Source: Saprospira grandis (GTDB taxonomy: Bacteria; Bacteroidota; Bacteroidia; Chitinophagales; Saprospiraceae). From it: a stretch of DNA of 64,000 bases. The stretch is from the NCBI RefSeq assembly GCF_027594745.1, contig NZ_CP110854.1, positions 1,180,241-1,244,240 on the forward strand, written 5' to 3'. The stretch's first letter is position 1. Each line of letters opens with the position of its first letter. Shown here piece by piece: positions 9,226-33,583 of the stretch. The notes under the pieces were generated by a model. The model was not told the DNA's origin and made no database searches. It was given only the letters and a program-made list of their open reading frames with translations. A program made the position numbers and the translations under genes.

Positions 9226-9398
9226 AAAAATGGCGGCTTTGCCGCCTTGGCCGCAGGCCAAACGGCCTAGCGATGTGCAGGGGTGGCCGCAGGCCAGACC
9301 GAAGCGCGCAGCGCTGAAGGGCCGAGCGAACAGCGAGCCCCGAAGCGTAGCGCCGCAGCTTGCTGCGGAGGCCCCAAAAGGGCATAAAAAAGGGGAGA
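9226..9398 (-). repeat. GC-rich interspersed repeat, copy 4 (reverse)
   Basis: GGCCTAGCGATGTGCAGGGGTGGCCGCAGGCCAGACC...GCAGCTTGCTGCGGAGGCCCCAAAAG. Begins right after the stop of the 1885-aa gene. Confidence 0.85.
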
Positions 9399-17243: not shown

Positions 17244-18239
17244 ATGCAATCTTCGGCAGATATTCAAGCCCTGAACGAACGCATTTATGCAGAAAGCCAA
17301 GTCATCGAGCGCCTATTGGCCGAAACCTCTAAGGTGATTATTGGCCAAGAATACATGATTGAGCGCCTGCTAATGGGCCTGCTGACCAAAGGACACGTTC
17401 TGCTGGAAGGCTTGCCCGGTTTGGCCAAAACCCTAGCCATCAATACCCTATCTAAGGCTATTGATGCAGAGTTTAAACGGATTCAATTTACCCCCGATTT
17501 GCTGCCCGCAGATATTTTGGGGACCATGATTTATAATCCCGCCAACAACAGCTTTTCGGTCCGTAAAGGCCCCATTTTCGCCAACTTTATTCTTGCAGAT
17601 GAGATTAACCGTGCCCCCGCCAAGGTGCAATCGGCCCTGCTAGAGGCCATGCAAGAGCGACAGGTCACTATTGGCGAAAAAACCTATAAATTGCAAGAGC
17701 CCTTTTTGGTCCTCGCTACCCAAAACCCCATCGAGCAAGAAGGAACTTACCCCTTGCCCGAGGCCCAAACTGACCGCTTTATGCTCAAAGCCAAAATTGG
17801 CTATCCCAAAAAGAGCGAAGAACGCCAAATTATCCGCCTAAATATGAGCGGAGAGTTTAGCCAGGTCCAAAAAGTAGCCAGTGTAGAGGATATTTTGCGC
17901 GCCCGCAAAACGGTCCGAGATGTTTATATGGATGACCGCATCGAGCAGTATATTTTGGACCTCGTTTTTGCTAGCCGCTTTCCCAAAGAACACGGCCTCG
18001 CCCAACTGGAAGATCTCATTACTTATGGAGGCTCGCCTCGGGCAAGTATCAACTTGGCCCTAGCCGCAAAAGCCCATGCCTATATGCGCCGCCGAGGCTA
18101 TGTGATTCCAGAAGATGTGCAAGCTATCGCCCCCGATGTGCTCCGCCACCGTATTGGCCTAAGCTATGAGGCCCAAGCCGAAAATATTAGTCAAGAAGAT
18201 ATTATTGAGCAATTGCTCAATAGCGTAAAGGTCCCCTAA
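17244..18239 (+). CDS. moxR: MoxR-family AAA+ ATPase (first gene of the Bat aerotolerance operon)
   Basis: LLEGLPGLAKT Walker A and ILADEINRAPAKVQSALLEAMQERQVTI MoxR signature. Confidence 0.9.
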   Translation: MQSSADIQALNERIYAESQVIERLLAETSKVIIGQEYMIERLLMGLLTKGHVLLEGLPGLAKTLAINTLSKAIDAEFKRIQFTPDLLPADILGTMIYNPANNSFSVRKGPIFANFILADEINRAPAKVQSALLEAMQERQVTIGEKTYKLQEPFLVLATQNPIEQEGTYPLPEAQTDRFMLKAKIGYPKKSEERQIIRLNMSGEFSQVQKVASVEDILRARKTVRDVYMDDRIEQYILDLVFASRFPKEHGLAQLEDLITYGGSPRASINLALAAKAHAYMRRRGYVIPEDVQAIAPDVLRHRIGLSYEAQAENISQEDIIEQLLNSVKVP

Positions 18240-18241
18240 AG

Positions 18242-19120
18242 ATGAGCCAGCAAGTTCGAGATTTAATCAAGAAAGTGCGCAAAATCGAGTTAAGGACCAG
18301 AGGCCTCTCTGCCATGGCCTTTTCGGGCAGTTACAAAACCCATTTTAAGGGTAGAGGAATGTCCTTTAGCGAGCTGCGCAGCTACCAATATGGAGACGAT
18401 ATCCGAAACATTGATTGGAATGTAACGGCCCGCACAGGTACGCCCTATATTAAGGTCTTTGAGGAGGAACGAGAGCAGAATTTCATGCTTTTGGTCGATG
18501 TCAGTGCCTCCACCAATTTTGGTAGCCATGATGTCAATAAACGAGAGTTTATGGCCGAGCTGGGCGCCACTTTGGCCCTGGCCGCTATTCGCAATAACGA
18601 TAAGGTGGGCGTCATCTTTTTTTCAGATAAAATTGAGCAGTATTTGCCGCCAAAAAAGGGGCGAAACCATGGTTTGCGGATTATTCGGGAGCTGCTCCAA
18701 TGCCAGTCAGAAAGTCCGCATACAGACATAGACCAAGCCCTGCGCTACCTGACGGGCCTGATTCGCAAACGCTGCACCGCTTTTCTTTTATCCGATTTTT
18801 TGGACCCCAATTATGGCCGCTATCTCAAGGTGGCCGCTAGCCGCCATGATCTGGTCGGCCTACAGGTCTATGACCCCCGAGAGGTAGAATTGCCCAATTT
18901 GGGCCTTTTGCCTATCCGCGATGCCGAAACCGGCAGTTGGCGTTGGATAGACAGCGCTTCTGCTAGCGTTCGTCAGGCCTATAAAGCTCGTTTTGAGCAA
19001 CAAACCGCCAGCTTTAAGGAGCAATTTGGAAAACTAGGGCTCGACTCCTTGAGTTTGTGCAGCGACCAGCCTTTTGTGGGCGCTTTGCGGCAGTTTTTCC
19101 AAGAACGTCCGGCCTTATAA
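18242..19120 (+). CDS. DUF58 domain protein (MoxR partner)
   Basis: DIRNIDWNVTARTG motif typical of DUF58. Start is 3 bp after the moxR stop. Confidence 0.85.
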   Translation: MSQQVRDLIKKVRKIELRTRGLSAMAFSGSYKTHFKGRGMSFSELRSYQYGDDIRNIDWNVTARTGTPYIKVFEEEREQNFMLLVDVSASTNFGSHDVNKREFMAELGATLALAAIRNNDKVGVIFFSDKIEQYLPPKKGRNHGLRIIRELLQCQSESPHTDIDQALRYLTGLIRKRCTAFLLSDFLDPNYGRYLKVAASRHDLVGLQVYDPREVELPNLGLLPIRDAETGSWRWIDSASASVRQAYKARFEQQTASFKEQFGKLGLDSLSLCSDQPFVGALRQFFQERPAL

Positions 19121-19202
19121 ATGATTTGAAACTACCATGATGCACCGCCTCCTTTTGTGGATTCCTTATATATTTTATTGTTTTTATTCTATGCTAAGTA
19201 GG

Positions 19203-19330
19203 ATTTGGGGCCTCCTGCCTTCGGCAGGCGCTATGTTCGGCAGCTCGCAAGTCTGCTCGGCCCTGCGGCCCTACGGGCCTGGGTCTGCGGCTGCGCCGCA
19301 CTGCCTACCAGCGCTAGGCCCTGCCCGCCC
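19203..19330 (+). repeat. GC-rich interspersed repeat, copy 7a (forward)
   Basis: TTGGGGCCTCCTGCCTTCGGCAGGCGCTATGTTCGGCAGCTCGCAAGTCTGCTCGGCCCTGCGGCC... Confidence 0.8.
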
Positions 19331-19500
19331 TCGGCCCAATAGCGTCCTACAGGCGGCGATAGCCGCCGCAGGCCTAGGGATGGAAAGCGGTGGCCGGAGG
19401 CCAGACCGAGGCGGCTTCGCCGCCGAAGGGCCGAGCGAAAAGCGAGCCGCGACACAGCCCGCCGCCAAGGCCGCAGGCCTGCAGCGGAGGCCCCAACTCC
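19331..19500 (-). repeat. GC-rich interspersed repeat, copy 7b (reverse), head-to-head with 7a
   Basis: ...GGCCGGAGGCCAGACCGAGGCGGCTTCGCCGCCGAAGGGCCGAGCGAAAAGCGAGCCGCGACAC...GGAGGCCCCAA. Confidence 0.8.
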
Positions 19501-20441
19501 TCCTAATTATCCTTGCCTTTTTACTGCCTGTACTGGCTTCGGCCCAACCCAATATTCAGTTTTTGGTAGATAGTACCGAACTTTTGATTGGCGACCAATT
19601 GACGGCTCGGATGCGGCTAGAAAGTCGAGAAGATGTGCTGGTCCGCCTGCCCAACCCTACGGTATATTGGGATGATAACTTAGTGGAAGTCATTCGACTT
19701 TCGGATCAATTGGAGGAGATTAGCCCTGATGGATTAAATAGTTTTGAGAAAAAGATCACTTTTACCTTTTGGGATACGGGCCATTATCAGCTGCCCGATT
19801 TGCCCATTTTGTATCAGAAAGATGGACAAATAGACAGTCTTTGGTTGAAAGTGCCCCTGATTCGGGTCAAGTTTCCGCCGGGCATTCGGGGCGATTCTAG
19901 TTATGTTGCACCGATTAAGGACATTATGGATGAGCCGCAGAATTTTATAGAAAAGCTGCTAGAATGGTTCTTTTTTTATCTGCCAATTGTTGCGGTAGTT
20001 TTTCTCATTTTGTTTGCTAGTGTCTTGGGCTTTTTGGCCTATTTGCTCTACAAAAAAGCGCAGGCTAGAAGAATCTACAAAACGCCTGAAGAGCGGGCAC
20101 GTATAGCCCTAAAAAAGCTATTGGCCAAGGGCTATTTGGAGCGAGAAGAATGGGCAGAATTTCATACGGGCATCAGTTGGATTATCCGGAGTTATTTGCG
20201 GCTTCGTTTTAGAGTTCGGGCTTTAGAGGCCACCACTAATCAGCTATTGGATCGGCTAAATTATGAGCATCTAGAGCAGAGTTTACTCTTAGAATTGAGA
20301 GAAGTACTAGAAACTGCGGATTTGGTCAAATATGCCAAGGCTTCGCCTTTGGCGGCGGCCAATGATTTTTCCGTGAAATTTATTCATAAAATGTTGGAAT
20401 ATGTAGAGCGGCAGGAAGCCCTCCGCAATAGTTCAAATTAA
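19380..20441 (+). CDS. Bat-operon membrane protein (hypothetical); native start uncertain because the 5' region is occupied by a repeat pair
   Basis: Signal-like segment RRPQLLLIILAFLLPVLASAQ begins near 19478 with no ATG between it and the repeat. The first in-frame ATG (19380) lies inside repeat 7b. One internal TM helix LPIVAVVFLILFASVLGFLAYLLY. The ORF caller's 19137 start is an artefact of the repeat. Confidence 0.5.
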   Translation: MESGGRRPDRGGFAAEGPSEKRAATQPAAKAAGLQRRPQLLLIILAFLLPVLASAQPNIQFLVDSTELLIGDQLTARMRLESREDVLVRLPNPTVYWDDNLVEVIRLSDQLEEISPDGLNSFEKKITFTFWDTGHYQLPDLPILYQKDGQIDSLWLKVPLIRVKFPPGIRGDSSYVAPIKDIMDEPQNFIEKLLEWFFFYLPIVAVVFLILFASVLGFLAYLLYKKAQARRIYKTPEERARIALKKLLAKGYLEREEWAEFHTGISWIIRSYLRLRFRVRALEATTNQLLDRLNYEHLEQSLLLELREVLETADLVKYAKASPLAAANDFSVKFIHKMLEYVERQEALRNSSN

Positions 20442-20449
20442 GCAAAAGC

Positions 20450-21451
20450 ATGTCCGGTCTTTCATCTATTATATTTGCACAAGCTTGGGTCTTGCTTCTT
20501 TTGCCCTTACTGCCTTTGTTTTGGTATTGGCGGAAGCGGAGGTCCTATTATGCTGACTTAGAGTTATCTCCTACGGCGGGTTTGGGCCCGGCGCAGAGTT
20601 GGCGAAGTCGTTTGCGGCCCATATTGCCTTGGTTGCAGCTCTTTGTTTTGGGGAGTTTGGTTTTGGCCTTGGCCCGTCCGCAGAAAGTCTTGGTCAAGGA
20701 AAACATCAAGGCAGATGGCATTGACATTGTGGTAGCCTTAGATGTATCGAGTAGTATGTTGGCTCGGGACTTTAAGGAAGACCGTTTGGATGCTTCTAAG
20801 CGGGTGGTGCAGAGCTTTGTTGACCAGCGGCCCTACGATCGTTTGGGCTTGGTGCTCTTTGCGGGCCGCAGCTACACCCAATGTCCGCTAACGACCGATC
20901 ATGGCATGCTCAAGCAGCTGATTAGTCGGGTAGAATGTGGCTTAATTGAAGAGGGGACAGCCATTGGGATGGGCTTGGCCAATGCGGTTCGGCGTTTACA
21001 AAAAAGCCAGGTCAAGAGCAAAGTTATCATCTTATTGACCGATGGAGTGAATAACTCGGGGAAAATTCCGCCTTTGGTGGCCGTAGAAGCCGCCAAAAAG
21101 CTGGGGATAAAGGTCTATACCATTGGGGTAGGGACCAGAGGGCGGGCCTTGGCGCCTATTTACCGCAAGGCCAATGGCAGCTTTGTATTTAGCCCCACCG
21201 AGGTAGAAATTGACGAAAAGCTTTTGCAGCAGATTGCAGAAAGCACCAAAGGGCTTTATTTTCGGGCCACAGATGAAAAAAGCCTAGAGAAAATTTATGC
21301 TCAGATTGACAAACTGGAGCGCTCTAAAATTGAGAAAGAGACCTTTATTCGTCATCGGGAATTGTACCAATACTTTCTCTTTTTAGCAGTGGTTTTACTG
21401 CTCCTTCATCTTATTCTTCAACAAACGGTATTGCGTAGCATCGTCCAATAG
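20450..21451 (+). CDS. batA: BatA-like von Willebrand factor A domain membrane protein
   Basis: N-terminal TM, then vWA MIDAS motif VVALDVSSSM and C-terminal TM. Bat operon context. Confidence 0.8.
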   Translation: MSGLSSIIFAQAWVLLLLPLLPLFWYWRKRRSYYADLELSPTAGLGPAQSWRSRLRPILPWLQLFVLGSLVLALARPQKVLVKENIKADGIDIVVALDVSSSMLARDFKEDRLDASKRVVQSFVDQRPYDRLGLVLFAGRSYTQCPLTTDHGMLKQLISRVECGLIEEGTAIGMGLANAVRRLQKSQVKSKVIILLTDGVNNSGKIPPLVAVEAAKKLGIKVYTIGVGTRGRALAPIYRKANGSFVFSPTEVEIDEKLLQQIAESTKGLYFRATDEKSLEKIYAQIDKLERSKIEKETFIRHRELYQYFLFLAVVLLLLHLILQQTVLRSIVQ

Positions 21452-21460
21452 TCTTTTATT

Positions 21461-22471
21461 ATGCAGTTTGAATCACCCAGTTTGCTGGCCCTACTAGTCT
21501 GCATTCCCCTAATTATTATATTATTTATTAGGGCGCAGCGGCTCAATGCCCAAATTAGAGCTCGTTTTGGCAGTTGGACAGCCTTTCAGCGGATGATCCC
21601 TGCTTTTGCTCCTGGCCGCAACAAGCTCAAGTTTGTGCTTTCTGTTTTGGCCCTTTCGCTAATGATTTTGGCCTGGGCCAACCCGAGGATGGGCAGCCGC
21701 AGCCGCAAAGTAGAGCGGGCCGGAGTAGATGTTTATTTGGCCCTTGATTTATCTAGAAGTATGTGGGCCAAAGATGTGCAGCCCAAGGGCATGGACCGTT
21801 TGGAGAAGGCCCGTCTGTTTAGTTTAGATTTACTGCAGGGTTTGGCCAATAATCGGGTGGGGCTTATCTTCTTTGCTGGAGAGGCTTTTTTGCAAATGCC
21901 GCTTACTTTGGACCATAGTTCGGCCCAGGTATTTCTTTATAATGGCTTGGAAGAAGTAGAACTCATGCAAGGCAGTATGCCAGAGAAAGTCTTGGAGCTG
22001 GTCCAAAAATCAGAAATACAGCCAGATGGTAAACAGCATCAAAAAGCGGTTATTTTTGTTAGTGATGGAGAAGAACACAACCCCAAAACCTTAGAGGCGG
22101 CCAAAGCCGCCCGCAAAAATGGGGTATTTAGTTATACTATTAGTGTGGGCTCTAGCCAAGGGGCCAAAATTCCACTACAAAGAGAAAATGAACTGGGTTT
22201 TCATAGAGATAAGCGAGGAGAAGAAGTAGTGACCGCTACCAACAAAAAGATGCTGGCCGAATTGGCCAAAGTAGGGGGCGGCCGAGCCTTTGATATTGAC
22301 CAAGGGAAAAATATCTTGCCCGCCTTGCTCAAAGACTTTAAGAAGTTGGAGCAACAAGAGTTTGATGAATTGCAATATGACGATTTTGACAGCTACTATC
22401 AGTATTTGTTGGCTCCTGCCCTACTCCTTCTCCTCTTTGAGTTTTTTCTGGCCTACCGCAAAAAATCATAA
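21461..22471 (+). CDS. batB: BatB-like vWA domain protein
   Basis: YLALDLSRSMWAKDV MIDAS motif, N- and C-terminal TM segments. Confidence 0.8.
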   Translation: MQFESPSLLALLVCIPLIIILFIRAQRLNAQIRARFGSWTAFQRMIPAFAPGRNKLKFVLSVLALSLMILAWANPRMGSRSRKVERAGVDVYLALDLSRSMWAKDVQPKGMDRLEKARLFSLDLLQGLANNRVGLIFFAGEAFLQMPLTLDHSSAQVFLYNGLEEVELMQGSMPEKVLELVQKSEIQPDGKQHQKAVIFVSDGEEHNPKTLEAAKAARKNGVFSYTISVGSSQGAKIPLQRENELGFHRDKRGEEVVTATNKKMLAELAKVGGGRAFDIDQGKNILPALLKDFKKLEQQEFDELQYDDFDSYYQYLLAPALLLLLFEFFLAYRKKS

Positions 22472-22474
22472 GCG

Positions 22475-23092
22475 ATGAGAGTAATTATTTTTCTGCTTCT
22501 TGCGCTCCCTTTGGGGCTATTGGCCCAAGAATCTTCTCGGAAGAACTTGATTGAAGGCAATAAGCACTATCGGCTGGGCGAACAAGAAAAGGCAGGGCAA
22601 AGTTATCAGAAAGCCCTACAAACCGATGAAAACAATAGCAAGGCCTGGTACAACCTAGGCAATGTCTTTTATCAGGCACAAAATTATGAAGAGGCAGAAC
22701 AGCACTATAAGGAAGCCCTTCAGAAAGCCGATAACCCTGAGCTAGAAGCCCGGGCCTACCATAACCTGGGAAACCTCTACGCCAAAGAGAAAAAACTCAA
22801 AGAGGCCGTAGAAGCCTATAAGAATGCCCTGCGCATTCGGCCCAAAGATGTAGAAACCAAACACAACCTGGCCCAGGTCCTCAGAACGATTAAGCAGCAG
22901 CAACCGCCGCCCCCTAAACCCAAAGACGATAATAAAAAACAGGAGGAAGAACAAGAATCTCCGCCCCCCGATGAAATGTCTAAGGATGAGGTAGAACGCA
23001 TGATGGATATGATTGAGGAGGAAGACAAAGACACCCAAAAGAAGAAGAAAAAGCAACCTAAAAATCGCCAAAATCCAGAAAAAGACTGGTAA
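22475..23092 (+). CDS. batC: BatC-like TPR protein with a Pro/Lys/Glu-rich C-terminal tail
   Basis: TPR repeats (WYNLGNVFYQAQNYEEAEQHYKEAL; YHNLGNLYAKEKKLKEAVEAYKNAL). Low-complexity tail QQPPPPKPKDDNKKQEEE. Confidence 0.75.
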   Translation: MRVIIFLLLALPLGLLAQESSRKNLIEGNKHYRLGEQEKAGQSYQKALQTDENNSKAWYNLGNVFYQAQNYEEAEQHYKEALQKADNPELEARAYHNLGNLYAKEKKLKEAVEAYKNALRIRPKDVETKHNLAQVLRTIKQQQPPPPKPKDDNKKQEEEQESPPPDEMSKDEVERMMDMIEEEDKDTQKKKKKQPKNRQNPEKDW

Positions 23093-23172
23093 GCAAATTG
23101 TATTTATAATGAGCAGAAGGAAGCAGGGCTTCCTTCTACCTTCTATTCTTCATTTTTAAATTCAACTGCATT

Positions 23173-23892
23173 ATGAAAACGCTTTTTAGTACTTTGATGG
23201 GACTCTTTTTTGCACTTGGCCTAGGAGCCCAGTCGCCTACTATCTCTCTGGAAGTTCCTTATGATACCGTAGGGACCGAAGATGTTTTTCAATTGCACTA
23301 CCATATTGAGCAGGGAGAGCAAGTAGAGTTCAAACAGCCCGATTTTGTCGACTTTGAGGTAATTGGCACATCTAGCAGCAGCCAAACCTCTATTATTAAT
23401 GGCCAAAAGACCGCTAAAAAAACCTATAGCTTTAGCCTAAAGCCCCGCTATGCGGGCTATCTGGCCCTACCCTCCGCCACGGCCTATATTGATGGCCAGA
23501 CTTATAGCAGCCCCAATGGGTCTGTATTTGTGGTAGAAGGAGCGCTAAGAGGCAACAGCAAAGGAAATATTTTTGGCAATTCGCCCTTTTCTAATGAGTC
23601 GCCTTTTGGCCAAGGCTTTAATATACAGCCCGATAACTTCAACTTTGATATGGAAGGCTTTGGCGATTTGAGCGATGGCCGCATGCAAGAACTGATGCAA
23701 AAACAAGAGGAACTCATGCGACGCTTGCAAAATCCCGATTCCCTGCTCAAACAACTAGATCCACAACTTAGAAATATGGACCAAGAATTTGAGGAGCTTT
23801 TTCGCCAAATGGAAGACCAATTTCCCGGTTTGCTTGGACCAGATGCCCCCAAAAAGAAACAACCCAAAGAGCAAAAAACCTATCGGCTTTAA
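23173..23892 (+). CDS. Secreted protein resembling the N-terminal module of BatD (short paralogue)
   Basis: Signal peptide. The repeated Greek-key-like pattern (LEVPYDTVGTEDVFQLHY...FEVIGTSSSSQTSIINGQKTAKKTYSFSLKP) parallels the first module of the next gene. Confidence 0.5.
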   Translation: MKTLFSTLMGLFFALGLGAQSPTISLEVPYDTVGTEDVFQLHYHIEQGEQVEFKQPDFVDFEVIGTSSSSQTSIINGQKTAKKTYSFSLKPRYAGYLALPSATAYIDGQTYSSPNGSVFVVEGALRGNSKGNIFGNSPFSNESPFGQGFNIQPDNFNFDMEGFGDLSDGRMQELMQKQEELMRRLQNPDSLLKQLDPQLRNMDQEFEELFRQMEDQFPGLLGPDAPKKKQPKEQKTYRL

Positions 23893-24043
23893 GGGAGGCA
23901 GCCAAGCGCAACTTGGCCTAGCGATGCGGCGGGGTGGCCGAAGGCCAGACCGAGTTTTTTGAGCGTAGCGAAAAAAACGAAGGGCTGAGCAAACTTGCGA
24001 GCCCCAAAGCGTAGCGCCGCAGCTTGCTGCGGAGGCCCCAAAT
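23893..24043 (-). repeat. GC-rich interspersed repeat, copy 8 (reverse)
   Basis: GGCCTAGCGATGCGGCGGGGTGGCCGAAGGCCAGACC...GCAGCTTGCTGCGGAGGCCCCAAATAAAT. Confidence 0.8.
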
Positions 24044-24083
24044 AAATAGATAAGTCAACAACTACCAGATTAAAACTACCGTT

Positions 24084-25835
24084 TTGAAAAGCTACCAACT
24101 AAGTCTACTTCTCCTTAGTTTTTGGGCCATGAGCAGCAGCTTGTTGGCCCAAAAAATCGCTTTTGTAGCCGATTGCAACGCCTCTAAGGTGGTGCTAGGC
24201 AATGCCTTCAGGCTCTCTTTTCGTTTAGAAAATGCCGAAATTAAGAAGATTCGATTTCCAGATTTTGAAGCCCAGGGCTTTCAAATTGTGGAGGGGCCTG
24301 TTAATGAGAGTCGATACACCAATATTAATGGCAACCGCTATACCTTTGAGGCCTATACCTTTAGCTTGGCCCCCAATAATGAGGGCAACTATACGATTGG
24401 GGCCGCAGAAGTGACCACCTATGGCGGTAAGGTCCTGAAAACCATGCCCGTTAAGATCAAGTGCGTGGCCCCAAGTAGTAGCAATGTACAAAGCCTAAAT
24501 GACCACAACCTGCCCCCAGAATTGGCGGGGAAAGTGCTTTTTCGCCTCGAATGTGAAAATCAAGAAGCCGTGGTGGGCGAACAAATCCGACTCAATTATA
24601 AGGTCTACACCCAAATAGATATTTCTAATATTGAGCTGGTCAAGGAACCCGAATTTCCTAAAATGTATACCAGAGAATATCGCTTCTTTGACAAAGATCC
24701 TCGGGTGGAGGTCATCAATGGCCAACAATATGCCACGAAAATCATCTACTCTATGGGGGTTTTTCCAACCAAAAATGGCGAGCTGAGCATCCCCCCCGCC
24801 GAAATCCTAATTAGTGTGGGCCGACAAGATCCCCGCAATCCTTTTGCCAGCCGCAGCCTCAAACAATATCCCCTGCTCAGCCTGCCTAAAACAATTCCCG
24901 TTCGCTCGCTTTCTGGCCAAGATAAAGATTATACCGGGGCCGTGGGCGAATACGATATGGAGCTTTATCTGGAAAAAGATGAAATTACAACCGATGAAGC
25001 CCTAGAACTAGTGATGCGCATTCGAGGCCTAGGCGATATTAAACCCATCACGGCCCCGCCCGTCCATTTTAAGGAGGGCAGCTTTAAGATTTTGGAGGTC
25101 GAACAAAAAGAAGATATCCGAGAAGGGGGCCGAGGCATTGGCGGCGAAAAAACCTTTATCTATAAAATTGACCCGCAAGAAGTGGGGGATTTGAGCTTGC
25201 AGCCCAGCTTTGTCTACTTTGATGTGCGCGACCGAAAATTGATCCGCATAGACAGCAGTCTAGAGGTCAAGGTAAAACAAGGCAAACGCATCCTGAACCA
25301 AGAAGTAGCCGAAACAGCCGTAGATAGCAGCCAAGTATTGAGCATGCAAGCGGCCCTAAAATCGGCAAGTTGGCGGCCAACACCCCAGCCATTTTTTGGT
25401 ACTTACCGCTTTTATCTGCTCAGTGTATTGCCCTTTTTGGCCTTTGGCGGATTCTATTTGCTCCTTTTGGGCCGAAAGAAAAGCCTAGCGCTCAAAGAAA
25501 AACAAGCCCTAAAAAATGCCCCTTACCGACATGCGAAGGAGCAGCTTCAACTAGCCAAAACAGCCCTAAAAACAGACAATGTAGGCGATTTCTACCGGGC
25601 CATTGAAGAGGCCCTAAAAGGCTATATCGGCCTGCAAATGAATATCCCTTTAGGCGAAAGAAGCAAAGAACGCCTGCAAACACTTTTGCCCGAAAAAGAA
25701 GCGCAGGAACTAGGCGAAATCCTTGAGCATTGCGAACAAGCCCTCTTTGCTGGCCAATCGCCCCATAAAACCATGGAAGAACAACTCAAACATAGCCAAA
25801 AGCTCATTAAACAACTCGAAAAACGCCTTGCCTAA
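24084..25835 (+). CDS. batD: BatD-like (oxygen tolerance) protein
   Basis: 583 aa with signal peptide, two tandem BatD-type beta modules, a TM segment (FYLLSVLPFLAFGGFYLLLLG) and a C-terminal helical domain. Position between batC and batE. Confidence 0.7.
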   Translation: MKSYQLSLLLLSFWAMSSSLLAQKIAFVADCNASKVVLGNAFRLSFRLENAEIKKIRFPDFEAQGFQIVEGPVNESRYTNINGNRYTFEAYTFSLAPNNEGNYTIGAAEVTTYGGKVLKTMPVKIKCVAPSSSNVQSLNDHNLPPELAGKVLFRLECENQEAVVGEQIRLNYKVYTQIDISNIELVKEPEFPKMYTREYRFFDKDPRVEVINGQQYATKIIYSMGVFPTKNGELSIPPAEILISVGRQDPRNPFASRSLKQYPLLSLPKTIPVRSLSGQDKDYTGAVGEYDMELYLEKDEITTDEALELVMRIRGLGDIKPITAPPVHFKEGSFKILEVEQKEDIREGGRGIGGEKTFIYKIDPQEVGDLSLQPSFVYFDVRDRKLIRIDSSLEVKVKQGKRILNQEVAETAVDSSQVLSMQAALKSASWRPTPQPFFGTYRFYLLSVLPFLAFGGFYLLLLGRKKSLALKEKQALKNAPYRHAKEQLQLAKTALKTDNVGDFYRAIEEALKGYIGLQMNIPLGERSKERLQTLLPEKEAQELGEILEHCEQALFAGQSPHKTMEEQLKHSQKLIKQLEKRLA

Positions 25836-26599
25836 TGCTACGCCTTTTTAGCCTCATTTTGCTCCTTGCCGTAGCAGCCCCAAGCTGGGCCCAACTGCCC
25901 GACAGCTTGGCCAAACAGTTTGCTATTGGCTATGCCCATTATGAAAAAGGAGACTACGAAAAAGCCCTTTCTGCCTACCAAAAAGCAGCCTTGCCAGGCT
26001 ATTGCTCTGCCGAATTGCAAAATAATTTGGGCCTGACCTACGAAAAATTAGGACAATATGGCCCCGCCGTACTCGCCTTCGAGCGCGCCCTCTTTTGCCA
26101 ACCCCAATTTGGGCCCGCCCAAGCCAACCTTAAGGCCATTGCCAGCAAATTAAGCCGACCCAAAGCTCAAGAAAAAGCTGGCTTTATCTTCCAAACTTGG
26201 GACAATCTAGCCGCCGGCCTCGGTAGCCATTTCTGGGCCTATAGCTTCCTGTTTTTCCTCTTTTTGGCCGCCGGCAGCCTCGCCTACTACCTCTTTGTGC
26301 AACAGAAAAAAGGCAAAACTTGGCTGCTCATCCTACTTAGCCTGCTGCTGGCCTTCTTTAGTTTTATGCTCAGCCGCCGAGCCAATTATCTGCAATTTAA
26401 CCGCCAATGGGCCGTCGTCATGAGCCCAGAAGCCGCCATCCTAGACCAACCCTCTATCCAAGGCAAAGAAGTAGAGCTGGTCGGCAGCGGAAATAAAGCC
26501 CTAATTCTAGAAGAAAAAGAAGATTGGTATTATGTTCGCTTGCCCAATGCCGTACAAGGCTGGATATCGGCCAAATTACTAGAAAAAGTACGCTCCTAA
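25835..26599 (+). CDS. batE: BatE-like TPR + SH3b protein
   Basis: TPR repeat, TM segments and C-terminal SH3b-like WYYVRLPNAVQGWISAKLL. Start overlaps the batD stop. Confidence 0.7.
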   Translation: MLRLFSLILLLAVAAPSWAQLPDSLAKQFAIGYAHYEKGDYEKALSAYQKAALPGYCSAELQNNLGLTYEKLGQYGPAVLAFERALFCQPQFGPAQANLKAIASKLSRPKAQEKAGFIFQTWDNLAAGLGSHFWAYSFLFFLFLAAGSLAYYLFVQQKKGKTWLLILLSLLLAFFSFMLSRRANYLQFNRQWAVVMSPEAAILDQPSIQGKEVELVGSGNKALILEEKEDWYYVRLPNAVQGWISAKLLEKVRS

Positions 26600-26832
26600 T
26601 TTGGGGCCTCCGCAGCAAAGCTGCGGCGGTTACTCCTTTCAGTCGTCGAACTGCGCCCTAAAGGGCTTGTTGTCGTTTCGGGGCTCGCTGATTTTTTTGG
26701 GCCTCCGCAGCAAAGCTGCGGCGCTACGTTTCGGGGCTCGCTATTCGCTCGGCCCTGCGGCAGCAAAGCTGCCTGGGTCTGGCCTTCGGCCACCCCTACA
26801 CATCGCTAGGCCTGCGGCGCTCCGCGCCTGCA
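26597..26832 (+). repeat. GC-rich interspersed repeat, copy 9 (forward; hairpin module duplicated; carries optional module B)
   Basis: TTTGGGGCCTCCGCAGCAAAGCTGCGGCGGTTACTCCTTTCAGTCGTCGAACTGCGCCCTAAAGGGCTTGTTGTCGTTTCGGGGCTCGC...ACATCGCTAGGCCTGCGGCGC. The element starts at the batE stop codon. Confidence 0.85.
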
Positions 26833-26870
26833 TAACGCAAAATATAAGACCTCTTAAAATACTTATCATC

Positions 26871-27602
26871 ATGAAAAATATCTTTTCTCTAAGCCTCATG
26901 GCTGTCCTCATCCTCTTTAGCTTTAGTAGCTGCGATAGCCTACAATCTGCCCTAGATGAGGCCTCAAAACTCAATGGCGGAACCGCCGCCCTTACCCAAG
27001 CCCAAATTGGCGAAGGACTCAAGCAAGCCCTTAAGCAAGGGGCCAGCAAAGGAGCCAGCCAACTGGCCGCCCGCGACGGATTTTTTAAAAATCCTTCGGT
27101 CAAAATCCTCTTTCCCGCCGAGGCCAAACAAGTAGAAAGTCGCCTCCGTGCCCTTGGCGCTGGCAACCTAGTCGATGATGCCATCGAAAAACTAAACCGC
27201 TCGGCAGAAGATGCCTCCAAATCAGCTAAAGACATTTTTGTTAAGGCGATTACCCAAATGACCATCCAAGATGCTACGAATATCCTGATGGGCGACAAAG
27301 ATGCTTGTACCAGCTATCTCAAAAGAACCACCTCCAACCAGTTGTACCAAAGCTTTCAGCCAGTCATCAAAAGATCATTGAATAAAACAGGTGCCCTAAA
27401 CGCCTGGAACAATGTAATGACTCGCTACAATAAAATTCCACTGGTCCAAAAAGTGAACCCCGATCTAGATGATCATGTCACCAATAAAGCCATGGAAGGC
27501 CTATTCAAAATGGTCGAAAAAGAAGAGGCAAATATTCGCGCCAATCCCGTGGCCCGCGCTACCGACCTCATGAAAAAAGTCTTTGCCAAACAAGATAAGT
27601 AG
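26871..27602 (+). CDS. DUF4197-like lipoprotein
   Basis: Lipoprotein signal MKNIFSLSLMAVLILFSFSSC. LKQALKQGASKGASQLAARDGFFKNPSVKILFPAEAK pattern typical of DUF4197. The ORF-track start at 26601 is a repeat-derived extension. Confidence 0.6.
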   Translation: MKNIFSLSLMAVLILFSFSSCDSLQSALDEASKLNGGTAALTQAQIGEGLKQALKQGASKGASQLAARDGFFKNPSVKILFPAEAKQVESRLRALGAGNLVDDAIEKLNRSAEDASKSAKDIFVKAITQMTIQDATNILMGDKDACTSYLKRTTSNQLYQSFQPVIKRSLNKTGALNAWNNVMTRYNKIPLVQKVNPDLDDHVTNKAMEGLFKMVEKEEANIRANPVARATDLMKKVFAKQDK

Positions 27603-30572: not shown

Positions 30573-30586
30573 CTTTTAAGCTAGCA

Positions 30587-30630
30587 AAAGCCGCAAGCCT
30601 CATCCGCTTGCGGCTTTTTTTTTATTTTTT
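30587..30630 (+). terminator. Intrinsic terminator after bshB1
   Basis: AAAGCCGCAAGC-ctcatcc-GCTTGCGGCTTT hairpin plus T-run. Confidence 0.7.
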
Positions 30631-30734: not shown

Positions 30735-33266
30735 ATGGGAGACAGCCGCGAACGCGATTTAGTCCTCGCCCCCAACGAGTACGCCTTTATTTCTGACCAA
30801 ACCAAGGGGAATGTAATTACTTATGTAGGGCCTTATAAAACCAGTATGGCCAATACAGACAAGCCCGTTTTTTTTAATAAAAAGACGAAAGCCTTTGACA
30901 TTTGCAATTTGGATGGTTCTATTCAGACCTTTTGCACGGCCCCAGAAGGCTGGTATATTATCCTGAAAAACCCTGCAATTGATAATAAACCGCCCCAGAT
31001 TGGGACCTCCAACCAGCTTTCTTCTTTGCAGATTGGACGCAAGGTCAATTTACCTGGTCCCAACTTTTTTGCGCTTTGGCCTGGCCAAATGGCTGAAGTT
31101 TTAGAGGGCCATCATCTGCGCTCCAATGAGTATTTGCTGGTCCGTGTCTATGAAGAGGAACAAGCCCGCGCCAATTGGGATAATGCCGTAATTACGCCTC
31201 AACATACCCAGCCCGAAGGCCTAGAAGAAGAGCAACAAGCCAATGATAGCATTGATGCCAACCGCCTCAGTATGGGCCAATTGCATGTGATCAAAGGGAC
31301 CAATGTTTCTTTTTATATTCCTCCCACCGGAATTGAAGTGCTCCGAGACAAAAAAGGAAATTATGTCCGCTCTGCCGTCACTTTGGAGCGCCTAGAGTAT
31401 TGTATTCTACTCGATGAAGATGGCAATAAACGCTATATCCAAGGACCCGATGTGGTCTTTCCTCGCCCCACCGAACGCTTTATTGAGAAAAATGGCAGCC
31501 GCAAGTTTAAGGCGATAGAACTAGATGAAAATAGCGGGATTTATGTCAAAATTATTGCTCCCTATACCGAAAATGGCCAAAGTTATAAGGTGGGCGACGA
31601 GCTCTTTATTACGGGCCGAGAACAAATGATTTATTTCCCCCGCCCAGAGCAAGCCCTGATCAAATATGGGGAACAGGAAATCTATCAAGCGGTGGCCATC
31701 CCCCCCGGCGAGGGCCGCTATGTATTGAACAGAAAGAGCGGAAAAATCAGCCTGCAAAAAGGGCCCGCCATGTTTTTGGCCGACCCCAGAGAGGAGATGA
31801 TTTTGCGCCGTATCCTTAGCCCCAAACAAGTAGAGCTTTGGTTCCCCGGCAATCAAGAGGCCCTGCAATATAACCTCCAACTGCAAGAGCTCTCTAAACA
31901 ACAGCAGGCCCGCCTGCGCAAAGCCTCCAAAAAGCGGAATAAACTCAATTTACCGCCCATGGCCCAACAACAACAGGCCCTGATTGATATGGATTTCTCG
32001 GAGGAAAATGAAGAAGAAGGCGAAAGCGTCTATGAAGGCATCGTTAGCAATTCTTTTTCTAGAAGCCGACAACCCCAAAATAACAATAGCCTGGTCCTCG
32101 ATAGTAAGTATGAAGGGGCTGTTACTATTGATGCCTGGACCGGCTATGCCGTTTTGGTCACCAGCAAATTAGGCGACCGCAAAGTGGTGGTGGGCCCAAG
32201 CACTTATCTACTCGATTATGATGAGGTTCTACAGGGCATTGAGCTCTCTACAGGCACCCCAAAATCTGATGCAAAGCTAATGAGAACGGTCTATCTCCGC
32301 ATTCTCAATAATAAGGTGTCTGATTTGGTGCGGGTAGAAACTGCCGACTTCTGCGAGCTGGATATCCACCTCTCTTATCGAGTCAATTTTACGGGAGATC
32401 CCGAAAAATGGTTCAATGTGGAGAATTATGTCAAGTTCCTCACCGACCACCTCCGCTCGGTCCTCCGAAATGCCATTAAGCAGTATAATTTGGCCGATTT
32501 TTATGCCGAAGGGATTGCCGAATTGCGCAATATCGTCCTAGGTAGCCGCCCCGAAGGCGAAGAGCAGGATAGCCGCCGCCCCGGCCGCCTATTTACCGAA
32601 AATGGCATGCACATTTATGAGCTGGAGGTCCTCGATATCGAGATTCTGGATGAGGAAATCCAAGAGCTACTTTTTGCTAGCAAGCACCAAGATATTCGCA
32701 GCCAGCTAGAGCTAGACAATAAGCGAAAGGAGTTGCTCTATAGCCAAGAAGCAGAAGAAATGGCCCAGAAAATCGCCGCTAGCCGCTCTAAAACGAAGCA
32801 GTTTGCTCTCGAGCTCCAAGAGGCAGAAGAAAAACAGGCCCAAATGCTCAAGTTGGCGAGCCAAGCGGCCCGCATTGATCTAGAACGCCAAGAACTTACA
32901 GCCCAAATGGAGATGCAAGAAAAGGCTCTCAATATTGCCCGACTACAGCGCCAAGATGAGGAAGAAGCCGGCCTACTCCAACTCGAACTCAAGAAGGGAG
33001 CCCTAGAACAACGCCTCAAAGAATTGGAGGGCGAAGTGCAGGCGGTGGTCCAAAAAGCCGAGGCCGTTAGCCCCGATCTGATCGCGGCCCTACAAGCCTT
33101 TGGCGACAAAGCCCTGGCCGAAAAAATGGCCGAAAGCATGGCCCCGCTCTCTATTATCGGCGGCAAAAGTATTGTCGAGGTCTTTGGCAATCTGCTGGCC
33201 GGCAGTCCCCTCTCCTATCTGCTAGATAAAAAAGGAGAAACTCAGGATCCCGGTTTAGAGGAGTAG
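30735..33266 (+). CDS. Major vault protein (MVP) homologue: MVP repeat domains, SPFH-like shoulder, coiled-coil cap-helix
   Basis: 843 aa; eukaryotic MVP is about 860-890 aa. Recalled MVP blocks align: ours KAIELDENSGIYVKII vs MVP IPLDENEGIYVQDV; ours VVGPSTYLLDYDEVLQGIEL vs MVP VIGSTYMLTQDEVLWEKEL; ours DLVRVETADFCELDIHLSYRVNF vs MVP [23 protein letters not shown]. Repeated Pro/Tyr/Gly-punctuated units run through the N-terminal 400 aa. A roughly 150-aa coiled coil follows the shoulder, as in the MVP cap-helix. Confidence 0.8.
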   Translation: MGDSRERDLVLAPNEYAFISDQTKGNVITYVGPYKTSMANTDKPVFFNKKTKAFDICNLDGSIQTFCTAPEGWYIILKNPAIDNKPPQIGTSNQLSSLQIGRKVNLPGPNFFALWPGQMAEVLEGHHLRSNEYLLVRVYEEEQARANWDNAVITPQHTQPEGLEEEQQANDSIDANRLSMGQLHVIKGTNVSFYIPPTGIEVLRDKKGNYVRSAVTLERLEYCILLDEDGNKRYIQGPDVVFPRPTERFIEKNGSRKFKAIELDENSGIYVKIIAPYTENGQSYKVGDELFITGREQMIYFPRPEQALIKYGEQEIYQAVAIPPGEGRYVLNRKSGKISLQKGPAMFLADPREEMILRRILSPKQVELWFPGNQEALQYNLQLQELSKQQQARLRKASKKRNKLNLPPMAQQQQALIDMDFSEENEEEGESVYEGIVSNSFSRSRQPQNNNSLVLDSKYEGAVTIDAWTGYAVLVTSKLGDRKVVVGPSTYLLDYDEVLQGIELSTGTPKSDAKLMRTVYLRILNNKVSDLVRVETADFCELDIHLSYRVNFTGDPEKWFNVENYVKFLTDHLRSVLRNAIKQYNLADFYAEGIAELRNIVLGSRPEGEEQDSRRPGRLFTENGMHIYELEVLDIEILDEEIQELLFASKHQDIRSQLELDNKRKELLYSQEAEEMAQKIAASRSKTKQFALELQEAEEKQAQMLKLASQAARIDLERQELTAQMEMQEKALNIARLQRQDEEEAGLLQLELKKGALEQRLKELEGEVQAVVQKAEAVSPDLIAALQAFGDKALAEKMAESMAPLSIIGGKSIVEVFGNLLAGSPLSYLLDKKGETQDPGLEE

Positions 33267-33269
33267 GTT

Positions 33270-33480
33270 TTGGGGCCTCAGCTGCGGTTACTCCCTTTGG
33301 TCGTCGAACTGCAGACTAAAGTCCTTGTTATCGTTGCGCAGCTCGCTGCTGTTTTGGGGCCTCCCGCCTTCGGCGGGCGCTACGTTTCGCAGCTCGCAGG
33401 TCTGCTCGGCCCTGCGGCCTGACGGCCTTGGTCTGCGGCTGCGCCGCACTGCTCCACATCGCTAGGCTAGTTCTGCGGCC
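33270..33480 (+). repeat. GC-rich interspersed repeat, copy 11 (forward, with module B)
   Basis: Starts 4 bp after the MVP stop: TTTTGGGGCCTCAGCTGCGGTTACTCCCTTTGGTCGTCGAACTGCAGACTAAAGTCCTTGTTATCGTT...ACATCGCTAGGC. Confidence 0.85.
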
Positions 33481-33540
33481 CAAGGCCGCAGCTGGGCCGA
33501 ACCAGCTAGGCAAAACCCTTTTACTGGCCCTAGCATAAGC

Positions 33541-33583
33541 AAAGCGCCCCGCTGCCAATGGCAGCGGGGCGCTCTTTTTGGCC
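33541..33583 (+). terminator. Intrinsic terminator (hairpin GCGCCCCGCTGCC/GGCAGCGGGGCGC)
   Basis: 13-bp perfect stem with AATG loop, followed by TCTTTTTG. Confidence 0.65.

Follow-up and report, generated by a model that had tools for sequence, protein, structure and literature searches.

For about forty years it has been unclear what vaults do. In the human vault, the shell formed by the major vault protein (MVP) carries a docking surface for PARP4 (MINT) on repeats R3-R5, and it binds NAD+ and ADP at the shoulder, in a pocket that lies between two neighbouring chains of the assembled cage (PMC12280208). Relatives in bacteria have been described in silico. UniProt H6L4P8 (WP_015691617.1, named "Major vault protein", from Saprospira grandis str. 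Lewin) is among the putative bacterial MVPs in Daly et al. 2013, where modelling gave it the fold and the docking of MVP (PMC3762200). The Sokolskyi 2019 preprint (10.1101/872010) treats it too, as a main subject among four proteins, and in-silico work on phage-borne copies of bacterial MVP was reported by Santos et al. 2023. Here we analyse a 64-kb stretch of S. grandis DNA (the window) that contains an MVP gene. The open reading frame (ORF) of 843 amino acids (aa) that an earlier reading of this DNA, the first-pass annotation, had placed at 30735-33266 on the + strand is borne out exactly, and its product is identical in sequence to WP_270100140.1, which NCBI labels "SPFH domain-containing protein" and which is encoded on a 4.25-Mb S. 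grandis chromosome. The window protein differs from H6L4P8 only at strain level, by six substitutions and an indel of one residue (837 of the 843 residues are identical, 99%), and the two share one 90% cluster. The identification as a bacterial MVP is thus correct but already known in silico, the same protein having been reported in 2013 and 2019, and many relatives carry the JGI annotation "major vault protein". About 5,870 database proteins match the ORF, the best 120 of them with 98-100% coverage and 55-70% identity. Since the homologues align from its first residues on, the annotated start codon is sound.

The ORF product is a true MVP homologue along its whole length. When family profiles are compared with the solved protein chains, MVP alone is matched (E=1.7e-23 and 8.9e-42), in pieces that are collinear with rat MVP: profile positions 13-50 correspond to residues 10-46, 233-355 to 294-409, and 463-791 to 458-818. 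An hhalign comparison with 16 tetrapod MVPs has 99.4% probability and E=9.3e-22 over 537 columns with 26% identity, from residue 1 to the start of the cap helix. Between them, the profile searches and hhalign give a collinear alignment to eukaryotic MVP from residue 1 to about residue 790 of the bacterial protein, and the E-values of 8.9e-42 and 9.3e-22 exclude a chance resemblance. Identity to eukaryotic MVP is low (about 13-26%), whereas between bacterial phyla it is 53-57% over the full length. Single sequences are less sensitive: a 210-aa fragment of the window protein matches rat and human MVP at 7.5e-11 amongst the PDB sequences, and a full-length single-sequence phmmer search of the PDB sequences returns no MVP, possibly as a result of the HMMER bias filter acting on the coiled-coil region. 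The Pfam profiles by which the first-pass annotation proposed to check its claim divide. The MVP shoulder (PF11978) is unmistakable, with aa 525-639 covering profile positions 2-118 of 118 at 109 bits for a cut-off of 25 (E=1.9e-31). The Vault repeat PF01505 is undetected, as is PF17794, in a scan with the repeat models PF01505, PF17794, PF17795 and PF17796. Tetrapod MVPs match all four of these repeat models, and many close homologues of the window protein have a precomputed match to PF17795.

The predicted structures point the same way. We obtained two AlphaFold models, one for the full length using 55 close homologues, and one for aa 1-530 using 84 more diverse sequences. The full-length model has an overall predicted local distance difference test score (pLDDT) of 57, with values of 80-92 in the shoulder and cap helix. 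In a structure search of the PDB, complete MVP chains take the first 12 places (E between 1e-18 and 1e-14); the murine R1-R7 structures come next (E between 1.6e-5 and 7.4e-5), ahead of SPFH cages at about 1e-4. The second model, that of aa 1-530 (AF2), reaches a pLDDT of 88.1 and a predicted TM-score (pTM) of 0.75. A Foldseek search of the PDB with that model puts MVP in each of the first 16 places (E between 2.6e-17 and 4.8e-11), and the 17th match is at E=0.087. With normalisation to the crystal structures of murine R1-R7 the TM-score is 0.60-0.63, and for rat 4V60 it is 0.53. A bacterial MVP homologue with the full-length domain order of the eukaryotic protein, as the first-pass annotation had it, is therefore supported by both sequence profiles and predicted structure. 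The layout it described, with Gly/Pro-punctuated beta-rich repeats (aa 1-524), an SPFH-like shoulder and one long helix, is present, and repeat beta-domains, SPFH shoulder and cap helix, on which it had made its claim depend, are all predicted. Its comparison of three blocks with human MVP fared less evenly. All three are genuine MVP sequence, but only VETADFCELDIHLSYRVNF, which lies in the shoulder, is at the orthologous position; the other two are cross-repeat resemblances. The profile alignment sets LDENSGIYVKI opposite human R7, and pairs human LDENEGIYVQD with bacterial PPGEGRYVLNR, while GPSTYLLDYDEVLQGIEL has its main alignment to human R9, at GPELVSLGPEEQF.

On the basis of the predicted model and the alignments, the number of repeats is seven, not nine as in eukaryotic MVP (Table 1). 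Seven G-x6-G(P) hairpins are conserved in the family alignment (residues 25/32, 101/108, 181/188, 230/237, 287/294, 336/343 and 480/487), and the strand pattern of the aa 1-530 model clusters around them. When profiles of the seven segments are compared with one another, the registers agree, although the similarities are weak (best for R4-R6 with E=2e-4, then R3-R5 with 1.2e-3, and R1-R7 with 1.6e-3). In the hhalign comparison with tetrapod MVP, two gaps of one repeat length each fall in the human R2-R5 region, and the bacterial R4-R7 pair with the eukaryotic R6-R9. The bacterial protein is nevertheless nearly as long as the eukaryotic one because of the loops in repeats 2 and 3 and an insertion of about 84 aa in repeat 6. 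The similar overall length noted in the first-pass annotation is thus the product of insertions and not of a nine-repeat array.

The repeat 6 insertion, located at the position of the mammalian R8 helix and loop, is kept in 78 of the 78 homologues that we aligned, with a length of 62-89 aa and with variable sequence and charge pattern. Mean identity to the window protein over these 78 homologues is 19% in the disordered insertion and 70-80% in repeats 1, 4, 5, 6 and 7. Repeat 1 shows no variation in its N-terminal strand or in the N40-T41-D42 loop across the 55 closest homologues. It is through the counterparts of these segments that the two halves of the human vault touch (PMC12280208). As the residues differ from the human ones, this conservation is only indirect support for an N-to-N contact.

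The shoulder has 61% mean identity to the window protein over the same homologues. Between it and the last repeat there is a near-invariant loop, S505-T-G-T-P-K510, equivalent to the "keyhole loop" of human MVP. The human NAD+/ADP pocket consists of R504, K506, R507, P508, H509, R511, L517, D521, F522, W545, P565 and K573 (PMC12280208). In the bacterial protein, the first six correspond to T508, K510, S511, D512, A513 and L515/M516, and the second six to R522, N526, K527, V550, E563 and D571; human P505, beside the pocket, is kept as P509. The keyhole loop is important, though probably not through the ligand contacts of human MVP. The loop at aa 505-510 is in itself a candidate ligand or interface site. 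The cap helix that follows the shoulder is of low complexity, rich in Leu, Glu, Ala and Gln (also Lys), with a mean identity of 32%, and profile searches align it to the cap helix region of MVP. Conservation rises again after the helix, to 72% in the moderately hydrophobic aa 776-830. The start of this segment aligns to human 801-818, and AVSPDLIAAL is opposite human AIGPSTIRDL (801-810), where the cap ring begins.

Our joint reading is that the window encodes a member of a bacterial MVP family, with a seven-repeat rod, a shoulder and a cap helix, that packs into a closed, vault-like shell made of one protein. We give it a probability of roughly 0.7. We infer the cage by analogy with eukaryotic MVP and with the solved SPFH cages. 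Lateral packing is probable because eukaryotic MVP and every structurally solved SPFH protein pack in this way. Many chains would line up next to one another, with contacts through the shoulder and the cap helix, and close into a ring or cup, and the conserved tips at repeat 1 would pair two cups into a closed hollow shell. Having seven repeats instead of nine, the barrel would be shorter than a eukaryotic vault, which is a closed shell of two 39-mer halves and in the rat has a height of roughly 67 nm. It would be without the PARP4 docking surface (repeats 3-5 in human MVP), and it would lack most of the basic residues of the human NAD+/ADP pocket. Since no conserved partner gene accompanies the MVP gene, the shell can probably do without one, and whatever it might contain would have to be recruited in trans. 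The sequence is constrained over its full length, with 72-80% mean identity in repeats 1, 4, 5, 6 and the C-terminus, and with the 53-57% across phyla given above, which is consistent with a lattice protein. A broader proposal, for which we would offer somewhat less than even odds, is that bacterial MVPs of this kind self-assemble into closed hollow cytoplasmic shells, shorter than the eukaryotic ones, in which the disordered insertion recruits cargo. They may then constitute a class of compartment so far unobserved, with most of its carriers in filamentous, gliding or predatory lineages, from which the eukaryotic vault would descend as from a prokaryotic precursor.

Several results count against the closed shell. 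Its assembly, symmetry and closure are all argued by analogy. We found no experimental work on any bacterial MVP in the searchable literature, which leaves subscription-only papers outside its scope, and the phrase "bacterial vault" does not occur in that literature; the statement of the first-pass annotation that bacterial MVP homologues are essentially uncharacterised, with no partners, RNA or cargo known, agrees with it. The Pfam vault-repeat models that do respond to the window protein stay below threshold (Vault_3 at 27.2 bits vs 28.8, Vault_4 at 13.8 vs 22.9). The human residues at the waist contact are mostly different in the bacterial protein, and the human NAD+/ADP pocket is not kept, with K506 (bacterial K510) the only one of its 12 residues retained. 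In the cap helix, the hydrophobic periodicity of 3.5-3.6 residues is not significant in the family alignment, as 81 of 500 shuffles reach the observed power. Finally, the C-terminal segment is modelled with a pLDDT below 50.

The main rival keeps the lateral packing and drops the closure. The protein would form a single cup on the cytoplasmic membrane, a half cage of the SPFH type like those of HflK/C, flotillin, stomatin and prohibitin. The NCBI label suggests as much, as do a weak match to Pfam Band_7 over aa 525-665 and the second tier of structural matches, in which flotillin, HflK/C, stomatin and prohibitin appear at E of about 1e-4. Canonical SPFH proteins are all membrane-bound, and in Dictyostelium vaults can attach to membranes with the cap side (PMC13100048); the most hydrophobic stretch of the window protein, aa 803-830, is in its conserved C-terminus. 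That stretch is nonetheless mild. The highest 19-aa Kyte-Doolittle mean in the protein, at the C-terminus, is 1.25, and judged by its sequence the protein is not membrane-anchored, having no transmembrane or strongly hydrophobic segment. The usual place of an SPFH anchor, N-terminal to the SPFH domain, is taken by 524 residues of MVP repeats. In addition, the Band_7 match (PF01145) is under the Pfam cut-off (18.2 vs 23.6 bits), and the MVP matches are better than those to SPFH cages by 10-13 orders of magnitude. We consider a membrane half cage unlikely, if still the most credible of the alternatives to the closed shell.

Less probable again is that there is no cage, and that the protein acts as a soluble monomer or small oligomer, for instance binding or sequestering nucleotides through the shoulder region, as proposed in Sokolskyi 2019. 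GMP and CMP pockets have been predicted in aa 500-700 of H6L4P8 (10.1101/872010), human MVP does bind NAD+/ADP at the shoulder (PMC12280208), the equivalent bacterial loop is near-invariant, and a bacterial cage has never been observed. The human pocket, however, forms only between neighbouring chains of the assembled cage, and the bacterial protein has other residues at most of the basic positions of this pocket, where P505/K506 alone persist as P509/K510. A solitary helix of 136 residues and a 500-residue rod of beta-domains are hard to rationalise outside a lattice, and the strong conservation over the repeats that would form the surface suggests that most of that surface is interface. These points make a cage-free protein improbable in our judgement.

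The remaining alternatives concern descent and the C-terminal half, and are best seen against the distribution of the family. In a scan with one genome per species, at least 287 species encode a relative of the window MVP, and amongst 50%-identity cluster representatives there are at least 589 relatives at E<=1e-30, a count made with the coiled-coil region removed from the query. The description of bacterial MVPs as sporadic in the first-pass annotation is fair, but with at least 589 such clusters the family is large. The best match amongst species is S. grandis DSM 2844, which has 97% identity over the full length and the same neighbouring genes. Carriers include Saprospiraceae, Cytophagales and Bacteroidales; Chloroflexota (Anaerolineae, Caldilinea); Riflebacteria and Sericytochromatia; Desulfonema and Myxococcota; and single bins of Gemmatimonadota, Moduliflexus and Bacillota. 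A neighbour-joining tree of 78 homologues, calculated without support values and having short deep branches and long terminal ones, groups most sequences by taxon and places the window protein inside a Saprospiraceae clade. Departures from taxonomy are few: Desulfobacterota and Moduliflexus fall inside Chloroflexota, a single Gemmatimonadota within Myxococcota, a Chlorobi bin among the Bacteroidales, and a Chitinophagales bin with Thermoflexibacter. This favours a long stay within lineages, with occasional transfer, over a recent acquisition by Saprospira. The suggestion that the gene was "probably horizontally acquired" finds no support for this lineage, given its native GC content and GC content at third codon positions (GC3), its synteny in DSM 2844, and a mostly taxonomic tree.

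MVP is best known from eukaryotes, and Daly et al. 2013 raised the transfer from eukaryote to bacterium for cyanobacterial MVP-like genes (PMC3762200). For the window gene, a recent transfer of this kind, or an assembly contaminant, is refuted for practical purposes by the present data: identity is about 13-26% to eukaryotic MVP vs 53-97% to hundreds of bacterial homologues, the gene sits on the 4.25-Mb S. grandis chromosome amid typical Bacteroidota genes (the Bat operon, a protein sorted by the type IX secretion system (T9SS), an S9 peptidase), the neighbours in DSM 2844 are the same, its GC of 0.49 and GC3 of 0.53 equal those of its neighbours, and it falls in the Saprospiraceae clade. The view of Sokolskyi 2019 that the C-terminal half is TolA-like and works with the Tol/Pal envelope system, built on the reported 22-37% identity of the cap-helix region to TolA domain II (10.1101/872010), is unsupported here and deserves hardly any weight, as no TolA family appears in the Pfam scan at E<=1, the similarity is likely compositional in a low-complexity Leu/Glu/Ala/Gln/Lys helix, profile searches align this region collinearly with the MVP cap helix, and the window protein has no transmembrane anchor.

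The genomic context brings no candidate partner for a shell. Terminator-like hairpins stand on both sides of the MVP gene, which suggests a single-gene unit that would be transcribed alone. Upstream are a PIG-L-family deacetylase, the T9SS-sorted protein and a MoxR/DUF58/BatA-D operon, and downstream are a convergent S9 peptidase and then a WD40-caspase protein. When all the ORFs of 80 related loci are clustered (flanks of about 10 kb), no conserved partner of the MVP gene emerges in the 80 loci; the most shared families are a histidine-kinase type (12/80) and an ABC ATPase type (8/80), and the few further shared neighbours reflect synteny of close relatives. In four bins, a look-alike of CorA-type magnesium transporters (judged by eye, 355-368 aa) lies divergently about 100-130 bp upstream of the MVP gene (loci L052, L053, L061 and L066; uncultured, Ozemobacteraceae and Rifleibacterium bins), probably as plain synteny. 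Within the 64-kb window, no Rfam family scores above threshold, and no counterpart of vault RNA, TEP1 or PARP4 was found. The family and structure libraries give no link of the MVP gene to defence systems, phage families or viral structures.

Three neighbouring features were considered as vault components and rejected. The WD40-caspase protein, 2.6 kb downstream, was weighed as a TEP1-like partner, but it is below the cut-off for the TEP1 propeller (63 vs 89 bits), and it adjoins MVP only in S. grandis; it is probably unrelated to MVP. It has weak PADLOC matches ("caspase" at 8e-7, and HEAT-ARM_XIII) and in architecture resembles a cell-death or defence protein. The upstream von Willebrand factor A (vWA) proteins, weighed as PARP4-like, are members of the MoxR/DUF58/BatA-D operon. 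That operon consists of a MoxR-type AAA_3 ATPase, a DUF58/vWA protein, an unannotated 434-aa ORF, a BatA-vWA protein and a second vWA protein, followed by a TPR protein, two BatD-domain proteins and a TPR-SH3 protein. The third feature, a GC-rich stretch of 330 bp 3' of the MVP stop, is not a vault-RNA-like gene. Rfam is empty there, and the stretch belongs to a dispersed intergenic repeat with the core GTTTTGGGGCCTC, of which the 64 kb contain 12 copies with at most one mismatch vs 0.13 expected. Two copies directly follow the MVP stop, and DSM 2844 has one fewer (an 84-nt difference). The repeat looks like a repetitive extragenic palindrome (REP)- or miniature inverted-repeat transposable element (MITE)-like element of Saprospira.

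Table 1. The MVP gene, the predicted parts of its product, and other features of the window. Positions are those of the window.
Feature	Position	Strand	Remarks
MVP homologue ORF	30735..33266	+	ATG to stop, 843 aa + stop; Saprospira grandis WP_270100140.1
Repeat 1, aa 1-50	30735..30884	+	aligns to eukaryotic R1
Repeat 2, aa 51-125	30885..31109	+	first half of eukaryotic R2 and second half of R3; loop at about aa 79-102
Repeat 3, aa 126-203	31110..31343	+	parts of eukaryotic R4 and R5; short helix and acidic loop at aa 156-178
Repeat 4, aa 204-250	31344..31484	+	eukaryotic R6; EYCILLDE opposite NYCVILDP
Repeat 5, aa 251-305	31485..31649	+	eukaryotic R7; YKVGDELFITG, the only classical "GDEWL-type" vault repeat
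Repeat 6 core, aa 306-373	31650..31853	+	first part of eukaryotic R8
Repeat 6 insertion	31854..32105	+	helix at aa 374-402, disordered charged segment at aa 403-457 (pLDDT 40-45 in the disordered part)
Repeat 7, aa 458-524	32106..32306	+	eukaryotic R9; sub-threshold Pfam Vault_3 match
S505-T-G-T-P509-K510 loop	32247-32264	+	between last repeat and shoulder; near-invariant across the family
MVP shoulder / SPFH-like domain, aa 525-639	32307..32651	+	PF11978, 109 bits, E=1.9e-31
Cap helix, aa 640-775	32652..33059	+	single helix of 136 residues; pLDDT 82-92
C-terminal segment, aa 776-843	33060..33263	+	conserved; low-confidence prediction
Bat operon	17244-26599	+	co-directional; aerotolerance-type, typical of Bacteroidota
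DUF4197 protein	26601-27602	+	E=1.3e-77
T9SS-sorted protein, 633 aa	27725-29626	+	nothing recognisable but a C-terminal T9SS sorting domain (Por_Secre_tail); passenger region without Pfam match
Terminator-like hairpin and T-run	30586..30618	+	follows the PIG-L-family gene; keeps upstream transcription apart from the MVP gene
Strong terminator-like hairpin	33543..33573	+	14-bp stem with 12 GC pairs; between the MVP gene and the convergent S9 peptidase gene
WD40-caspase protein, 1144 aa	35869-39303	+	WD40 near the N-terminus and at about aa 570-690; C-terminal Peptidase_C14
GC-rich intergenic repeat copies	33267-33520; near 9368, 19202, 26958, 39312, 47010, 54283, 54376, 55273, 62415, 62515		

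To what was reported before, this analysis adds a fold assigned with confidence; a repeat number of seven, the units that are lacking being placed in the PARP4-binding region of human MVP; an insertion, universal in the family and disordered; a near-invariant keyhole loop with a chemistry unlike that of the human NAD+ pocket; and a distribution that is wider than the usually cited "few bacteria" and largely congruent with taxonomy. These additions are incremental, and the window brings no partner, RNA or context that advances the question of bacterial vaults. What bacterial MVP offers is a simple and genetically tractable system of one gene, without known partners, in which to ask about the purpose and the origin of the shell.

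Amongst known systems, the canonical SPFH cages (HflK/C, flotillin, stomatin, prohibitin, QmcA) share with the Saprospira protein an SPFH domain followed by a long, laterally packing helix, and they make a closed cup. They differ in having a membrane anchor ahead of the SPFH domain and in forming half cages on membranes, whereas in the Saprospira protein some 524 residues of MVP repeats stand there and a hydrophobic anchor is absent. The MVP homologues of Asgard archaea (Nat Microbiol 2026, PMC12962969) are likewise prokaryotic and full-length. They have a shoulder and a cap helix and a smaller number of repeats than the eukaryotic proteins, and they too are known by prediction only. Their representative is described as having five repeats (PMC12962969), which sets it apart from the Saprospira protein with seven. 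For the N-terminal 530 residues of the bacterial protein, eukaryotic MVP (rat 4V60/4HL8/7PKZ; human 9BW5/9MXV) is alone in giving a significant structural match. The two proteins differ in the number of repeats (nine vs seven, with two repeat-lengths missing within the region equivalent to R2-R5), and in the insertion of the R8 equivalent, which is much longer in bacteria (62-89 aa). Identity is about 13-26%, and the bacterial member is known from sequence and model, with no particle observed. They agree in the order of repeats, SPFH shoulder, cap helix and C-terminal segment, and the agreement extends to details. An insertion or disordered loop occurs at the same site in bacterial repeat 6 and mammalian R8, and the shoulder loop at bacterial aa 609-611, where model confidence is low, is in the same place in the eukaryotic protein.

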